NCBI GenBank assembly: GCA_029838215.1
Contig: JALGVI010000010.1
Location: forward strand, 1-48,394
Length of the DNA: 48,394 nucleotides
Direction of reading: 5' to 3'
Source of the DNA: Candidatus Helarchaeota archaeon
GTDB taxonomy: Archaea > Asgardarchaeota > Lokiarchaeia > Helarchaeales > RDOG01
Positions 41,754-48,137 of the stretch are shown piece by piece (within the stretch, counting starts at the first letter, position 1; each line of letters opens with the position of its first letter). The notes under the pieces were generated by a model, which worked only from the letters and a program-made list of their open reading frames with translations, searched no databases and was not told the DNA's origin. The position numbers and the translations under genes were made by a program.

Positions 41754-43002
41754 TTAGTAACCTCATCTTTGCGTGCAGGATGATTTTTTTAGAGATTTCT
41801 TTACCTGATTTAAAATTTACATGAAATCTCGATAAAGAAAAGCGAATTGCTTCAAAAAAATTTTTCCTTTTAGAGTTTAGAAGAGAATTTTTGAATGAGA
41901 AGATATGCAAGGATTTAACGGGTTTTGGCAAGGAAATAGTGAAGAGGGAGGGAATAATTTAATCCTAAGGGAGAAATTCAAAAGTAGGTCCTACCAAAAC
42001 CTTTCGTTTCAATGCATTAATGATCCTCTTCATTCAATAGTCAGAAACTCCAAGTCCGTATTACGGCGAAATATCACTCCAAGTTCATAAATGAGATATT
42101 GAAATAAAAATCATTCCGTTTTTCCAATTCTTAATATCATTTTTAAAAAAAACAATATAAATTCCCTTTTTTTGAAGAAACGGACAAATATTAGAAACAG
42201 AAGTTTAGAGCTTATACCTGCAATAGAACCATCCATGGGATTTTAATGAATCCTGTCAAGTGAGGAGGGAGGGGATTTGAGGGGATTTAATAAAAGGGGA
42301 GGTATTCTTTTAAAACAAGTAAAGACAGGATTTTTCATCACCCCTTGGAATGGTTCTTCTTTGCAGGGATCTATCATTTCCTTGTTTTCATGAAAGTTTT
42401 TTTACTTACTTCTTTTTCACTGCCTCCAAGCGTTCCAATGCGTTGAAATCATTGGTGTTCTGGAAACCGCCTCCAAAGCTTATGAGATATTTTTCGGGTT
42501 GGAATAAAAACCTTCCCATATTACTGTCTTGCGACAGGTCGTGAATAATTCACGCCTTCACGAAATACTATGGACAACTTACAAGTATTTCTATTGATCG
42601 TTACCAATCTACTACATTAATGGAATTGTGAGTATTTATTTTTTCCGTAAAAGAAATGGGAAATTTGTAGATGGCTATATACATTTGTATATAATGATTG
42701 GAGCTTCTAGTGTCGTAAATAAAAGCTATGTTTAGGGGAAATTTATCGTAAATGATTAATGGCGAGATAGCTTTCCTGTTTCATACCAAGCAGACAGTGT
42801 TACATTCAAGGATTTCACGTCTTTTTTAGCTTTAATGGCCTCATGGTTTTCATTTCTTGAATGATCCCCTTTATCCCACCCTCAATCCGTTTATCTACTA
42901 ATCTATCGTCTTTTTTACATCCACTAGGACAACAAACAGGAATTGATAGATCTTCTCCTTTATCTTTAATTTCGTGGTTCTCCCCACATCTCATTCAGTT
43001 TC

Positions 43003-44265
43003 TCATTTTATTTTCTTCAGGCGCAATATACAAATGCCGTGAGTAATTTCCCAATCCGTGGTTTTAAAGCCAATTTTCTGAGTTATGACATCGAATAGAG
43101 CGGCAGTACCTTGCATCACGCTCTTTGGTATGCTAATGCCATAGATTTTAAATTCAAAATCATATTCTTCATCATGGAGTTGAACTAATTCAACTCGAGC
43201 GTCTTTTTTTTCATCTTGAAGGAAAGAAATGCGTGTCAGATCTGTAAGCGTCCTGAGATCGAGATTTTTCCTCCTGTTCTTCAGGTAATCTGCAGCCCAC
43301 GTGCCAAATTCCCGCCATTTTTGTTCCCAATCGAGATTTCTCACACCATACTTCGATGCAGCATACCAAATTGGAGCGGGGAAAAAGAGTATATCCAATT
43401 CGGAGACCAATTTAAATCCTTCGTACTCTCGCATAATGGTCTTCAATGGCAGTTTGAGTTTATCAGCAAATATTGCGCTTTGCATGACGTTCGTATTGAG
43501 ATAACTATAAAGTGTAACACCATATTTTTTTGTTATTCCTACAAGTTTTTCCATTAGGTCTTTAGAGACGGCAAGGATCTTTCGTTCCTGAGCAGTTTTC
43601 TTGCGGGGTATTTTTTTTCGTTTGTATAGAATGCGCTCGCTGACTTTTTTTTGGAGTTTTTCATCTAAATTTAGCCGTAGGTCCAGATCTAGAAGTTTAT
43701 CATTAATGATTCTTTTTTCTTCTTTAAATCCAAAAACCTCAAACACGCCATTTATGAAGTACGAGAAACAATCCAGATAATTTCGCTTTATTTCATCGTT
43801 TTTTGAAAATATTTTTACAGAGTGAGTGATTTCTCGGGGATCACCTTGTTGAATCGGCGTGATTTCGACATCTATTATCTTTGAGAAAAGCACCTTGAGA
43901 GAATTTCCCAAGAACGTGAATATTTCATTGAAATTACTAAACTTCATCCTTGCGTAGCTCGCATACCATATTCCAAACTCGTGGAATTTTGAACGAGCTC
44001 CTTTAATGTCAACGTTCACGTATTCGTCTAGTGCTGACATGAATAAACTGAAAGGGACAAGAACGCAATTAGTTTCGATGGCATATTGGTAATATTGAAA
44101 TTCATCAAGAATATCATATAAGGATTTTCCCAGTTCTTCTGCTCGAATTGCTTGCTTGACGACAGAGTTTAAATAGGCGTAGACGGTCTTACCTTTTTGT
44201 TTTGCAATATCAAGTAACTGCTCAGCAAGAATTCTATCAACTGCAACGGTTTTTCGTTCAGATAT
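43003..44265 (-). CDS. Tandem RHH + V4R-like regulator, paralog C (proposed ATA start)
   Basis: The frame stays open 75 codons upstream of the track start (44040), back to ATA-TCT-GAA-CGA-AAA (ISERKTVAVDR). A TAA lies immediately before. Internal duplication ERKILAVSKDL. Confidence 0.8.
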   Translation of the reverse strand: MSERKTVAVDRILAEQLLDIAKQKGKTVYAYLNSVVKQAIRAEELGKSLYDILDEFQYYQYAIETNCVLVPFSLFMSALDEYVNVDIKGARSKFHEFGIWYASYARMKFSNFNEIFTFLGNSLKVLFSKIIDVEITPIQQGDPREITHSVKIFSKNDEIKRNYLDCFSYFINGVFEVFGFKEEKRIINDKLLDLDLRLNLDEKLQKKVSERILYKRKKIPRKKTAQERKILAVSKDLMEKLVGITKKYGVTLYSYLNTNVMQSAIFADKLKLPLKTIMREYEGFKLVSELDILFFPAPIWYAASKYGVRNLDWEQKWREFGTWAADYLKNRRKNLDLRTLTDLTRISFLQDEKKDARVELVQLHDEEYDFEFKIYGISIPKSVMQGTAALFDVITQKIGFKTTDWEITHGICILRLKKIK

Positions 44266-44270
44266 TTAAG

Positions 44271-44280
44271 TCACACACCT
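44271..44280 (-). promoter_or_regulatory. SD-like motif for paralog C
   Basis: AGGTGTGTGA ending 5 nt before the ATA. Confidence 0.5.
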
Positions 44281-44402
44281 ACAGCACGTCTCAGATGAAA
44301 TCCTTTTTTTTAGCTTCACAATATTTTGTCTCAAATTCCATTCCCGTTTTGTCTATACAAAGTAATGCTTTTTAATGTTTGTGAGCGGGAAGTGCAAAGT
44401 TT

Positions 44403-45674
44403 TCACGATTTTTTCAAATTCAAAACACAAATTCCAAACGAGACATTTTTTCCAGCAGTACGATACCCCAGTTCTTCACAAAGACCTTCATAATAAGTAG
44501 CAATCCCCAACATTAAACTTTCAGGTAGTGTTCTTCCATAGAGCTTTAAAGTTAAATCATAGTCTTTATTGGAAATTTTCTCTAAATCAACTTTCATCTC
44601 AATTCTTGAGTGAGGGTGAAATGTAATTCGAGCCAGTGTGAGAAGACGCGAAAAATCCATTTCTTTAAAACGAATTTTCAAGAATTGGCCCGTCCACGTT
44701 CCCGTTTCGTGCCATTTATTTTCCCAAGCGGGATCCTTGCTAGCGAATTCTGCCAGAAAGAAAGCTATGGATGCAGGAACAAAAATCATGTCGATTTCGT
44801 TTAGAATTCGGAAACCCTCATGTTCTTCAAGTATTGTTCTCAAAGGAATGCCGTAGCTCTCTGCGAGAATTGTACTTTGCAAGACATTTTCATTAAAATA
44901 TTTGAAGAGCGTCACGTGTCTTTTTTTTGCGATATCATTCAATTTTTCAGCCAGATCTTTTGAAACTGCAAATATCTTTCGCTCGCCAGAACTCTCCGTT
45001 GCATATTCTTTTATCATTTTTGACATGTTACTTTCTTGCAGATTAGCTTTTTTTTGCGTGTTTAAGGAACGTGATACGGTAATCGTGATTATATTCTCTG
45101 AAATGGATTTTTCTTCTTCGGCAAATTCATAAGTCTCAAAAAATCCTTGAAAAAAATAGTAGTAGCATAGAAGAAAGTCGCTTTGCATCTCGGGATTTTT
45201 GGAATGCAATTGTGCTTGATATGTTATTTCACCGTCATTCTTCAGTGCTTCATTCTTGCGGATTCTGCTCATCTTTAATGTAATAATTTTTGAGTTAGCG
45301 ATGTTGAAAAAAGTGGTTTCAAATTTTTCCATCTCTTCAATGCTGTGATATTTAATTTTCGTGAATTCTGCATACCATATTCCGAAATTTCGCCATTCTA
45401 TGAAGACTCTTTCTCGATCGTTTTGTAGGTTTACACGAAGCCCATAAATAAAAATTGAGAGGGGTACCAAAATGAAGTTACTTTTAAAAGCGTGAAGATA
45501 ATATTGATAGATGTTTACTTGATCATATAGTGGCGCGTTTAGATTTTCGGCTTTTATGGCATACTTTATTAATGAATTAATATAAGAATAGAGGGTTTTT
45601 CCTTTTTTCCTTGCAATTTCCATTATTCTTTCTGCGAGTTCTTTGTCAACAGCAACAGTTTTCCTTTCAGAAAT
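44403..45674 (-). CDS. Tandem RHH + V4R-like regulator, paralog B (proposed ATT start)
   Basis: The frame extends 17 codons upstream of the track start to ATT-TCT-GAA-AGG-AAA (ISERKTVAVDK). An in-frame TAG lies three codons earlier. Internal copy ERKIFAVSKDL. Confidence 0.8.
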   Translation of the reverse strand: MSERKTVAVDKELAERIMEIARKKGKTLYSYINSLIKYAIKAENLNAPLYDQVNIYQYYLHAFKSNFILVPLSIFIYGLRVNLQNDRERVFIEWRNFGIWYAEFTKIKYHSIEEMEKFETTFFNIANSKIITLKMSRIRKNEALKNDGEITYQAQLHSKNPEMQSDFLLCYYYFFQGFFETYEFAEEEKSISENIITITVSRSLNTQKKANLQESNMSKMIKEYATESSGERKIFAVSKDLAEKLNDIAKKRHVTLFKYFNENVLQSTILAESYGIPLRTILEEHEGFRILNEIDMIFVPASIAFFLAEFASKDPAWENKWHETGTWTGQFLKIRFKEMDFSRLLTLARITFHPHSRIEMKVDLEKISNKDYDLTLKLYGRTLPESLMLGIATYYEGLCEELGYRTAGKNVSFGICVLNLKKS

Positions 45675-45682
45675 CCACCTCT

Positions 45683-45688
45683 ACCTCC
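45683..45688 (-). promoter_or_regulatory. Strong SD for paralog B
   Basis: GGAGGT with an 8-nt spacer to the ATT. Confidence 0.7.
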
Positions 45689-45831
45689 TTATCGGCATGA
45701 ATTTTACTCGAAATCATGGAGTTTTTTACCAATTCGTGAAATTAATACTATTTAAACATTGAAATTCCTCAAGAATACCTCTTTTTTGATTTAGGACTTC
45801 TTTAAATATAAATTTTTAAGTAACCAAAAAA

Positions 45832-46782
45832 TCATTCGATAAACTGCTTTGCCAAATTTTTTAGTATTTCTTGACCGTGTACTTCCTTGCTAAGGGCAGG
45901 GACTTCTATTGGGGTAAACTGGGAGAACTTTTCCTTGATTATCTGAAGATTTTTACTTTGTTCTTGAAATTTTATCTTGCAAAACTCGCAATCTGATGGA
46001 GGTGGTAAGATTCTATTTATGATTAGTCCTCCGATGGTGATGTCCATTTTTTGTAATTGGCTAATCATTCGGTCCGTTTCGAGGATGCTCAGGAGTTCGG
46101 GAATGCAAACAACAAAGAATCGTGTCGTGGATTGATCTTGTAAGAGAGTTTTCGTACGTATGGCCCAGTCTTCGATGAGAGCAAGAAATTCATTTATATC
46201 GGGATTTTCATTTTCCTGACTTCGTCGAAAAACTTTCGTAAAGCTGCCAAAAATGTTTCCAATTTTATTTTTCAACCGAATCAAACGAATGCTGGTTCGT
46301 TTCATGTATTCAGGTAGGTCCAAGAGATTCAACGTGTGACCGGTTGGAGCCGTGTCAATGATGACCAGGGCATATTGCTTTCCCTGTTTGCCACCAACCA
46401 GAGTTCGATTGATATCTAAAATGCTGAATCCTTCATTCATTCCCGGAAAAAGTTCGGCAGAATCTCCAAGAATGAGTTTATATTCAGGGAATTTATCGAG
46501 GTACGCCTGATAATCCTTTGCAACATCTTTTGTATTTATTTCAATGGCATCTAAATGATCATTGATGTATTTCGGCTCACCCCCAGTTAGGTTCTTGGCG
46601 AAAATATCGCTTAATGAATGTGCTGGATCGGATGACATTATTAGCGTCGGAATGGAGTGCGTGGAAGCCCATAAAGCGGTGGCAGAAGCCAGGCTGGTTT
46701 TTCCTACACCGCCTTTTCCTCCAAATAGAAGTAAATGTTTTTTTTCGAGAGAGCTTTCAAGAATAAGATCGGCTAAGGACAT
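45832..46782 (-). CDS. Single-domain ArsA/Get3 (TRC40)-family ATPase
   Basis: GGKGGVGKT, SDPAHSLSD, DTAPTGHT and a C-terminal CEFC (Get3-type CxxC). Confidence 0.9.
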   Translation of the reverse strand: MSLADLILESSLEKKHLLLFGGKGGVGKTSLASATALWASTHSIPTLIMSSDPAHSLSDIFAKNLTGGEPKYINDHLDAIEINTKDVAKDYQAYLDKFPEYKLILGDSAELFPGMNEGFSILDINRTLVGGKQGKQYALVIIDTAPTGHTLNLLDLPEYMKRTSIRLIRLKNKIGNIFGSFTKVFRRSQENENPDINEFLALIEDWAIRTKTLLQDQSTTRFFVVCIPELLSILETDRMISQLQKMDITIGGLIINRILPPPSDCEFCKIKFQEQSKNLQIIKEKFSQFTPIEVPALSKEVHGQEILKNLAKQFIE

Positions 46783-46836
46783 GCTAAAAACCTGTTAAAC
46801 TTGTCACTAATTTAGACGAATAGAACTCAGTTTTAT

Positions 46837-48123
46837 TTAGTTTTGGTCATGCTTTTCTTGTAGATGCAAGACGCAAATTCCATAGCTGTTCTTTTTACTT
46901 AGAGTTTTATAGCCGATTACTTCAAAGATTCCTTCAAAAAATGCGCCAAAACCTGCTGTTAAATCTTCGGACAACGTGGTCCCATAAATCCGCAGCTCAT
47001 AGTTGTGCATTTCGGAAGGAGTAGACACGATTTCAAGATTCATTTCGTTACTTGACCCTCGATAGAAAATCATTTGAAATATATTGACTAATTGAGAGAG
47101 ATCGGGATTTTTCAATCTTGCGACCAGTAGTTTTCCTGATGAAATACCCCTTTTTTTCCAAGTATTTTCCCAAGTTGGTTTTTTTGCGGCGAGTTTCGTT
47201 ATTGAGAAAAATATTGGAGCAGGAACGAAAGCAAAACCCATTCCCCTTAGAGTTTGAAATCCTTGATACTCTTTAAGAATCGTTCCTAATGGAACGTCAT
47301 ATTGTTCTGCTAGAAGAGCACTCTGCAATATATTTTCATTAAAAAAACGAAATAGAGTCATTCTTTGTTCTTTGATAAGTGGTAAAATTTTTTCTTCCAA
47401 ATCTTTTGAAACGGCAAGTATTTTTCGTTCGTATGGGTCTTTTTTCGTCCGGGATCTTTTCTTTTTTTGTAAATATTCTTGTTGTATTTCCTGATAATCG
47501 TTCATGTCAATGTGCCGGGATATTTCAAACGTTATTACAGAATTCTTGATCTCTTTCCTATCTTCTTTAAATCCATGCATTTCAAAAAATCCTCGGAAGA
47601 AATGATAATAACAAATGAGAATATCTTTTGAAATTAAATTAGAATGAGGGTAAATTATAATGGAAAGCGAGGATTTTAGAGAATTTTTCTGCTTTTTATT
47701 ATTTAAGATAGTGGCTCGCACGCTGATATTGAGAACTTTAGAAAAAATCACGTCAAAAAAGAAGCCGACAAAGTTTTCCATCTTCAGGATGTTTTTGTAT
47801 TTCATTTTTGTTAAATTTGCATACCATTTACCGAAGGAATGGAATTCTTGAAGAATACCGTCGTGATCAGCAGCTAAATTAATTTTTAAAGCGTGAATGA
47901 ATATTTCAAAGGGAATTAATATGAAGTTGTTTTGAAACGCATACATGTAATATTGATATTCATTAACTATATCCCGTAGATTCACACCCAGTTCTCTCGC
48001 CTTAACAGCATATTCCATCACGTTATTTACATATGAATAAATTGTCCGTCCTTTCTTTTTTAATATCATGATGAGCTGATCGGCAAGATCCTTGTTCACA
48101 GCAACAGTTTTTCTCTCGGGAAT
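46837..48123 (-). CDS. Tandem RHH + V4R-like regulator, paralog A (proposed ATT start)
   Basis: The frame extends 8 codons upstream of the track GTG to ATT-CCC-GAG-AGA-AAA (IPERKTVAVNK). A TAA lies immediately before. Internal copy ERKILAVSKDL. Confidence 0.8.
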   Translation of the reverse strand: MPERKTVAVNKDLADQLIMILKKKGRTIYSYVNNVMEYAVKARELGVNLRDIVNEYQYYMYAFQNNFILIPFEIFIHALKINLAADHDGILQEFHSFGKWYANLTKMKYKNILKMENFVGFFFDVIFSKVLNISVRATILNNKKQKNSLKSSLSIIIYPHSNLISKDILICYYHFFRGFFEMHGFKEDRKEIKNSVITFEISRHIDMNDYQEIQQEYLQKKKRSRTKKDPYERKILAVSKDLEEKILPLIKEQRMTLFRFFNENILQSALLAEQYDVPLGTILKEYQGFQTLRGMGFAFVPAPIFFSITKLAAKKPTWENTWKKRGISSGKLLVARLKNPDLSQLVNIFQMIFYRGSSNEMNLEIVSTPSEMHNYELRIYGTTLSEDLTAGFGAFFEGIFEVIGYKTLSKKNSYGICVLHLQEKHDQN

Positions 48124-48125
48124 TT

Positions 48126-48137
48126 ACCTCAACCACC
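48126..48137 (-). promoter_or_regulatory. SD-like motif for paralog A
   Basis: GGTGGTTGAGGT just upstream of TAA-ATT. Confidence 0.55.

Follow-up and report, generated by a model that had tools for sequence, protein, structure and literature searches.

A stretch of 48,394 nucleotides from Candidatus Helarchaeota archaeon (GenBank assembly GCA_029838215.1, contig JALGVI010000010.1, positions 1 to 48,394; hereafter the window) carries three paralogous regulators, arranged head to tail on the minus strand, that are predicted to be translated from isoleucine codons: AUU at 48123, AUU at 45674 and AUA at 44265. We consider it probable, at roughly 75%, that they are translated in this way as part of a lineage-wide use of AUH (AUA, AUC or AUU) start codons. 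As judged from the sequences, initiation at the isoleucine codon would be the only reading that keeps a conserved and selected strand of the ribbon-helix-helix (RHH) domain with which these proteins begin. The original prediction had proposed a conserved mechanism of translational control for this family, by analogy with bacterial infC. Initiation at the isoleucine codons and its retention in orthologs are upheld here, while a family-specific, infC-like device is not.

Predicted isoleucine-codon starts of three paralogous regulators

Paralog 1 (P0001, 428 aa; two RHH and V4R-like modules) occupies 46837..48123, with the predicted start ATT at 48123-48121 and the stop at 46839-46837; paralog 2 (P0002, 423 aa) occupies 44403..45674, with the predicted start ATT at 45674-45672; and paralog 3 (P0003, 420 aa) occupies 43003..44265, with the predicted start ATA at 44265-44263. 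On the minus strand, their start regions read TTG AGG TAA ATT CCC GAG AGA AAA ACT GTT GCT GTG, TAG AGG TGG ATT TCT GAA AGG AAA ACT and GTG ACT TAA ATA TCT GAA CGA AAA ACC, respectively. The original prediction held that the three proteins share the N-terminus I[SP]ERKTVAV[DN][KR] from these codons and that no canonical start could supply it, and the sequence bears out both statements: an in-frame TAA adjoins the isoleucine codon in paralogs 1 and 3, a TAG lies three codons before it in paralog 2 (TAG-AGG-TGG), and the first ATG, GTG or TTG in frame is GTG 48099, ATG 45623 or ATG 44040, which entails a loss of 8, 17 or 75 residues. A start at GTG 48099 would lose the RHH strand of paralog 1, and a start at ATG 44040 would lose the whole RHH domain of paralog 3. 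From each stop to the conserved strand, no codon other than the isoleucine codon differs from AUG by its third position alone. The same strand recurs within each protein, as the second internal repeat opens with an invariant ERKI[LFI]AVSK in all three paralogs. In addition to what had been described before, a canonical codon lies in frame a short distance 5' of each stop (TTG-AGG-TAA in paralog 1, ATG-CCG-ATA-AGG-AGG-TAG in paralog 2 and GTG-ACT-TAA in paralog 3).

Seven two-repeat genes were compared to assess whether the N-terminal segment is translated: the three of the window, one in locus L009, one in L028 and two in L029. Across codons 2-9, which in the window genes precede all canonical starts, the proportion of synonymous differences (pS) was 0.60-0.95 and that of nonsynonymous differences (pN) 0-0.06 in all seven pairs compared, and all seven genes have intact frames of 418-428 codons. 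Because synonymous sites are saturated while almost no amino acid has changed, the codons after the isoleucine codon are translated and under purifying selection at the protein level, which excludes truncated products, pseudogenes and non-coding leaders.

The position of the isoleucine codon holds ATH in all seven genes, drawn from three assemblies, and five of the seven have no usable canonical start. In L028 (Helarchaeales metagenome-assembled genome (MAG) GCA_054799095.1), P0009 reads GGTGA GTG AAC TAA ATA TCC GAG CGA AAA; it is 46% identical to paralog 3 and its gene call is short by 31 residues. Gene 1 of L029 (Logan SRR31155650), P0010, reads GGTGC GTG AAT TAG ATT TCG GAA AGG, with a gene call short by 48 residues. 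The frame is open in the other two: P0007, also in L029, reads GTG ACT TCG ATT TCT GAG and is called from GTG, and P0005 in L009 (GCA_054799095.1), 53% identical to paralog 2, reads GGTGG TTG AAG CCT ATC TCT GAA and is called from TTG. Homologs that mostly carried ATG would have implied local decay of the start codon; in the two-repeat clade the tabulated codons are instead TAA-ATA in L028 and TAG-ATT in L029. Since a stop followed directly by ATA or ATT is found in assemblies from other samples, the arrangement reflects neither recent decay nor a local sequencing error. The leader element GGTGGTTGA of paralog 1 is also present in the L009 ortholog. Gene callers do truncate such genes, as had been anticipated: P0004 (406 aa), P0006 (420 aa), P0008 (314 aa), P0009 and P0010 all begin at downstream codons.

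The two-repeat form is rare and was present only in the source genome (G000) among 61 related genomes searched. A word-indexed protein search gave one ortholog, an exhaustive HMMER search gave four more two-repeat genes in two independent assemblies together with P0011, and pattern scans with the family alignment over two large collections of genome and metagenome contigs gave no further relatives. P0011, in L030 (GCA_011365055.1), is a more distant homolog with a canonical TTG (TTG TCA AAA GAA CGA AAG). Single-module relatives mostly have canonical starts, and most of about 150 representatives align from residues 2-15. Two such copies reside in the source genome itself, one on contig C15 (ATG ATT ACG GGT CGC AAG; MITGRKTIAVDK), in which ATT aligns with the isoleucine codon of the paralogs, and one on C52 (ATG AGA AAA AAT).

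The context of the isoleucine codons is that of a Shine-Dalgarno (SD) led start. The 3' end of the 16S rRNA is GGATCACCTCCT, and upstream of the first ATGs of long open reading frames (ORFs) G is enriched at positions -14 to -8, which fits GGAGGTG as the genome-wide mode; this genome initiates translation by SD pairing. The SD-like motifs reported just upstream of the three isoleucine codons are present, and all factual statements of the original prediction that were checked proved correct. In the leader of paralog 1 (48124..48137), GGTGGT at 48137-48132 (-14 to -9) is followed by an in-frame TTG at 48132-48130, AGG and TAA at 48126-48124. The leader of paralog 2 (45675..45688) has GGAGGT at 45688-45683, in the exact modal register (-14 to -9), with the in-frame TAG at 45683-45681 and then AGG TGG. 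That of paralog 3 (44266..44280) has AGGTG at 44280-44276 (-15 to -11), an in-frame GTG at 44274-44272, ACT and TAA at 44268-44266. The predicted duplex with the 16S tail is strongest at ATT 45674 of paralog 2 (-12.1 kcal/mol, top 0.4% of random internal positions), followed by ATT 48123 of paralog 1 (-9.2 kcal/mol, top 3.3%) and ATA 44265 of paralog 3 (-7.4 kcal/mol, top 8.9%). The downstream canonical starts of the three genes have no SD, with unremarkable values of -0.3 to -3.8 kcal/mol, and the upstream in-frame TTG of paralog 1, GTG of paralog 3 and ATG of paralog 2 are equally unremarkable (-5.4, -3.9 and -3.1 kcal/mol).

RHH and putative V4R-like modules of the regulators

An AlphaFold model of the first module, built from 72 aligned modules and single-module homologs, reached a per-residue confidence score (pLDDT) of 92.9 and contains an N-terminal strand and two helices that superpose on solved RHH domains. 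Its residues 2-45 align with PutA (2rbf_A) at a Z-score of 7.6 and a root-mean-square deviation (rmsd) of 1.0 Å over 44 residues (VIA-align), and residues 1-47 superpose on the RHH domains of PutA, NikR, AmrZ and TacA (rmsd 1.0-1.9 Å) as well as Arc, with 1q5v_A, 3qoq_A and 7ak7_C among the matches. Pfam gave only sub-threshold matches of the paralogs to RHH_1 and DUF3408; for RHH_1, P0002 scored 19.1 bits against a cut-off of 20.5, and P0001 and P0003 had no match. Residues 1-10 are coil in the single-module model. In the model of the full-length two-repeat protein (pLDDT 87.5), residues 4-10 and 232-238 are both strands, and their pairing is a prediction from the DSSP strings; the two RHH domains of one chain thus probably form an intramolecular RHH pair. 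Since strand 4-10 forms only in the two-repeat model, together with 232-238, the DNA-reading ribbon is predicted to need the residues right after the isoleucine codon.

The remainder of the module, residues ~55-205, was matched by fold to BcsD (Z 9.1), PoxR (Z 8.0), DmpR (Z 7.9), two TRAPP subunits (Z 8.0 and 7.8), H-NOX (Z 6.6) and the V4R protein MJ1460 (Z 6.4), at sequence identities of 5-13% and at Z-scores (6.4-9.1) in a range where a mere common arrangement may be shared. Foldseek against the PDB returned nothing at an E-value of 0.001 or better (best, 1.7e-3), Pfam V4R had no match in the paralogs, and one family member matched HNOB at 1.7e-4. Together, the models suggest a sensory fold of the V4R/H-NOX/TRAPP-Bet3/BcsD/PoxR-DmpR type, which the regulators resemble in the arrangement of residues ~55-205 and from which they differ in their 5-13% identity and the missing Pfam V4R match. 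Compared with known RHH regulators that carry a ligand-binding domain (NikR, PutA RHH, CopG/Arc/MetJ superfamily), the N-terminal strand would be the DNA-reading element in the same way; here, however, two RHH domains and two sensor modules lie in one chain, and the predicted sensor fold would be of the V4R/H-NOX/TRAPP-Bet3 and not of the ACT kind.

Between paralogs 1 and 2 lies a gene for an ArsA/Get3-like P-loop ATPase (45832..46782, minus strand; 316 aa, ATG start). Such a gene adjoins two-repeat genes in the window, neighbours with PF02374 are found at L009 2206-3156 and L030 4875-5912, and in L029 the neighbour is a 322-aa gene at 3-971 whose ArsA/Get3-like identity is unconfirmed. Judged by gene order, a functional pairing of the ATPase with the two-repeat regulators is possible. 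Directly 3' of paralog 3, the window has a 59-aa Cys-rich ORF (MRCGENHE...CCPSGCKK) at 42815-42994 on the minus strand.

AUH starts across the genome and in aIF1

The 3.62-Mb genome was scanned for similar starts by considering ORFs of at least 150 codons and, within them, positions at least 6 codons 5' of the first canonical start, with an SD scored where at least 6/7 bases matched GGAGGTG in register ±2. SD-backed ATH codons were found at 17/1379 positions in frame compared with 4/2194 out of frame (odds ratio 6.8, p=1.2e-4), and ATH made up 17 of the 50 SD-backed positions compared with 10.5% of all positions (p=7e-6), many of the non-ATH positions being codons that adjoin an ATH match. Within the first 50 codons of the scanned ORFs, 141 ATG, 26 GTG and 58 TTG codons reached the same SD threshold. 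When the test was widened to codons 1-50 of all long ORFs, the signal was diluted (34/5939 in frame, 27/8813 out of frame, p=0.018), and our conclusion relies on the narrower test. A long low-complexity, Gly/Pro-rich ORF on the plus strand of C168 was left out of the start-codon statistics: its GFGGPPI repeats contain GGAGGT in units (TTTGGAGGTCCGCCC ATC) that mimic SD-ATC sites. At several candidates an ATG overlaps an upstream TGA in an 'ATGA-ATC' pattern, which we considered as a signal of a frameshift or indel and rejected since the SD is properly spaced for the ATH but not for the ATG; the base preceding ATH at these candidates is within chance expectation.

Several of the candidates are genes of recognizable and unrelated function. 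The ATT-started ORF for AcnX (G000:C47:11850-13031, plus strand) aligns at residue 2 with position 2 of the AcnX profile, its first canonical codon lies 22 codons in, and the ATT with GGTGA 6-7 nt 5' of it is kept in G005 (of the same order) and G013 (of the same class). An HdrB-like gene with two CCG stretches (G000:C62:22078-22980, plus strand) reads AGGAGGTTAAATGA ATC TCT TAT, with the first canonical codon 24 codons in; among 14 homologs from related genomes, the codon opposite this ATC is ATG in 10 and TTG in one, and the closest homolog (G001) has ATC behind GGAGG and 9 nt. In an AbrB/MazE gene (C13, ATA) the domain begins 5 residues before the first canonical codon, and the profiles of Aminotran_5 (C112, ATA) and FlpD (C12, ATC) begin 1-2 residues before it. 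A radical SAM gene and an OsmC gene are also among the candidates, and for an AbrB-PhoU gene no orthologs were found in 14 relatives with the query used. By these counts and alignments, AUH codons are the predicted starts of a few percent of the SD-led genes in this genome and appear to be conserved in orthologs across the class. Since these starts occur in unrelated genes across the genome and the class, the trait belongs to the organism or lineage.

The sole SUI1/aIF1 gene of the source genome (G000:C46:4706-5002, minus strand) follows the same pattern, as its zinc knuckle (ICPKC...CMC) lies 5' of the only ATG, with a TAA two codons before an ATA that stands 9 nt after AAGGAG. In 20 of 27 tabulated genomes of the class, the interval from the upstream stop to the knuckle is devoid of canonical codons, and in each of these 20 it contains an in-frame ATH. 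Most of these 20 are genomes of the f4 family, with the leader aGGTTG TGA AAA AAG AGT ATT AAA GAC ... ATT TGT CCT; the remaining ones are G000 and G001 (ATA GAR ATH TGY) and G002 and G004 (ATA). In G011 the only in-frame TTG sits inside an SD-like motif, GGTTGTGA, and was read as part of the SD. An in-frame TTG is found in G003, G005, G006 and G017, and an in-frame GTG in G010 and G026. aIF1 thus appears to start at AUA or AUU in most of the genomes tabulated. In S. solfataricus, aIF1 reportedly discriminates against non-canonical starts (PMC6237735), and the same paper cites Ivanov et al. 2010 for autoregulation of eIF1 through poor start-codon context.

Transfer RNA genes were also inspected. 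Aragorn, with or without introns, found 18-21 tRNAs and no tRNA-Met; the Rfam tRNA model found 28 tRNA genes in the MAG, many with introns missed by Aragorn. Among them is an initiator tRNA candidate (G000:C23:30582-30672, minus strand) with A1:U72, a GGG/CCC anticodon stem, the anticodon CAT and an intron next to the anticodon loop. None of the 28 detected tRNAs, an incomplete set, looked like an initiator with a GAU or UAU anticodon. Given a standard initiator tRNA, near-cognate pairing by the normal initiator is the simplest mechanism. The SD would place the 30S subunit at the AUH codon, the ordinary initiator tRNA (CAU) would pair with it despite the third-position mismatch, and the product would begin with methionine at reduced efficiency, partly offset by above-average SDs. 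The three regulators would then simply belong to the weak-start genes found throughout the lineage, with an output that depends on initiation stringency, and their AUH start would probably go back to the ancestor of the two-repeat clade.

Weighing of alternatives and comparison with known systems

Some observations weigh against initiation at AUH. In paralogs 1 and 3 the SD either is an imperfect match or stands 3 nt farther from the start than the mode, and SD use is modest genome-wide, with a median duplex of -5.2 kcal/mol at first ATGs and -3.6 kcal/mol at random positions. Simple SD matching underlies the genome-wide counts, and the paralogs cannot be treated as independent of one another. 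Open in-frame canonical codons exist in P0005 (TTG-AAG-CCT-ATC), P0007 (GTG-ACT-TCG-ATT) and the distant P0011 (TTG), so that to judge from these sequences the ancestral start could have been a [GT]TG at codon -3. More generally, a GTG or TTG stands in frame at -9 to -7 in six of the seven two-repeat genes; we read it as the GTGA part of the SD, and it might nonetheless be functional. As the called GTG of P0007 and TTG of P0005 lie inside or against the SD, at a spacing of 0-1 nt, these two genes may use the ATH start as well.

The first alternative is that of the original prediction, in which starting at AUU or AUA serves this family as a conserved means of regulation that keeps the proteins scarce or autoregulated in the manner of infC. 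The invariance of the isoleucine start in the two-repeat genes of three assemblies speaks for it, as does the retention of upstream stops between orthologs and of 11 of the last 14 leader bases between paralog 3 and its L028 counterpart, although synonymous sites are saturated. Conservation within a clade can nevertheless be simple inheritance, single-repeat relatives use ATG (including the two in the same genome), and the trait is common to unrelated enzymes and aIF1, genome- and class-wide. In bacteria, initiation at AUU, AUA or AUC is established, with AUU in E. coli infC and pcnB and with ATT, ATC and ATA as alternative initiators in NCBI table 11; the autoregulation of infC depends on its product being a start-codon fidelity factor. 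The analogy fails for the three regulators because their products, RHH domains joined to V4R-like modules, do not control start-codon fidelity: a product that sets start-codon stringency is encoded by the aIF1 gene (C46) and by none of the three. We therefore regard control specific to this family as unlikely.

A second alternative invokes a minimal upstream ORF, in which ribosomes start at the in-frame GTG or TTG at codon -3, terminate two codons on, at the TAA or TAG, and begin again at the adjoining AUH with no new search for an SD. The required series of start, one codon, stop and AUH is indeed present in four of the seven genes, namely paralogs 1 (48124-48132) and 3 (44266-44274) and the genes of L028 (276-284) and L029 (1077-1085). 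Paralog 2, however, has TAG at codon -3 and hence no such ORF, and P0005 and P0007 have no stop. Moreover, the SD core abuts the GTG or TTG or lies 1 nt from it, which is far too close for an SD to direct a start there, duplexes in the proper window reach only -5.4 and -3.9 kcal/mol, and the GTG is accounted for as the GTGA of the SD consensus GGAGGTGA. Reinitiation of this kind is thus quite improbable.

There is a very small chance that the N-terminal strand is not made at all, whether through use of the downstream canonical starts, decay into pseudogenes or readthrough of the stop from an upstream canonical start. Gene callers pick the downstream starts, and each gene does have a canonical codon 5' of its stop. 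Decay and truncation are contradicted by the low pN at saturated pS in codons 2-9 and by the seven intact frames; the downstream starts, moreover, have no SD, and the one at 44040 would delete an entire RHH domain. Readthrough is opposed by the peptides 5' of the stops (MR*, MPIRR*RW and MT*), which are unconserved. Finally, the source is a MAG of 170 contigs with 6% estimated contamination, but a conversion of ATG to ATT or ATA by assembly or base-calling error is next to negligible, as homologous codons would have had to be hit by separate errors three times, an NCBI MAG and a Logan assembly from other samples show the same arrangement, and the C15 copy has its ATG before the ATT that aligns with the isoleucine codon, which is therefore not a mutated ATG.

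Lineage-wide initiation at AUH, the reading we prefer, has practical consequences, since in Asgard genomes standard annotation deprives these regulators of their DNA-reading strand and other genes of their N-termini, and such 5' truncation leads to wrong domain and function calls at the 5' end. Widespread and conserved AUH initiation that includes aIF1 would also bear on how strictly start codons were chosen in the archaeal lineage closest to eukaryotes. Full-text literature searches on AUU or non-canonical starts in Asgard and other archaea and on aIF1 autoregulation found no description of the phenomenon. As a tentative extension, expression of the AUH-started genes of Lokiarchaeia-class Asgard archaea could depend, as a class, on a stringency set by aIF1, for which an AUA or AUU start is predicted in most of the genomes covered; the three RHH-V4R sensors, AcnX and the HdrB-like protein would be tuned in this way. 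The logic of infC may well apply to aIF1, in which case the AUH genes, the three regulators included, would respond to its level. The apparent AUH start of aIF1 suggests a feedback circuit that is testable in cultured Lokiarchaeia, and the stringency class, if true, would parallel in archaea the feedback known for infC in bacteria and for eIF1 in eukaryotes.

The starts described here resemble bacterial AUH starts in that an SD leads to a near-cognate codon, a weak start is combined with a good SD, and gene finders restricted to ATG, GTG and TTG miss them. They differ in that the host is an Asgard archaeon with eukaryote-type aIF1, aIF1A and aIF2, and in that they involve many unrelated genes with class-wide conservation, known from sequence alone. 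The resemblance to eIF1 and infC autoregulation lies in aIF1, a fidelity factor for whose own gene 20 of the 27 tabulated genomes offer no canonical start. Such a circuit would concern aIF1 and not the three regulators, and feedback is proposed by analogy only; in that sense, aIF1 may be a candidate archaeal counterpart of the infC and eIF1 feedback systems.

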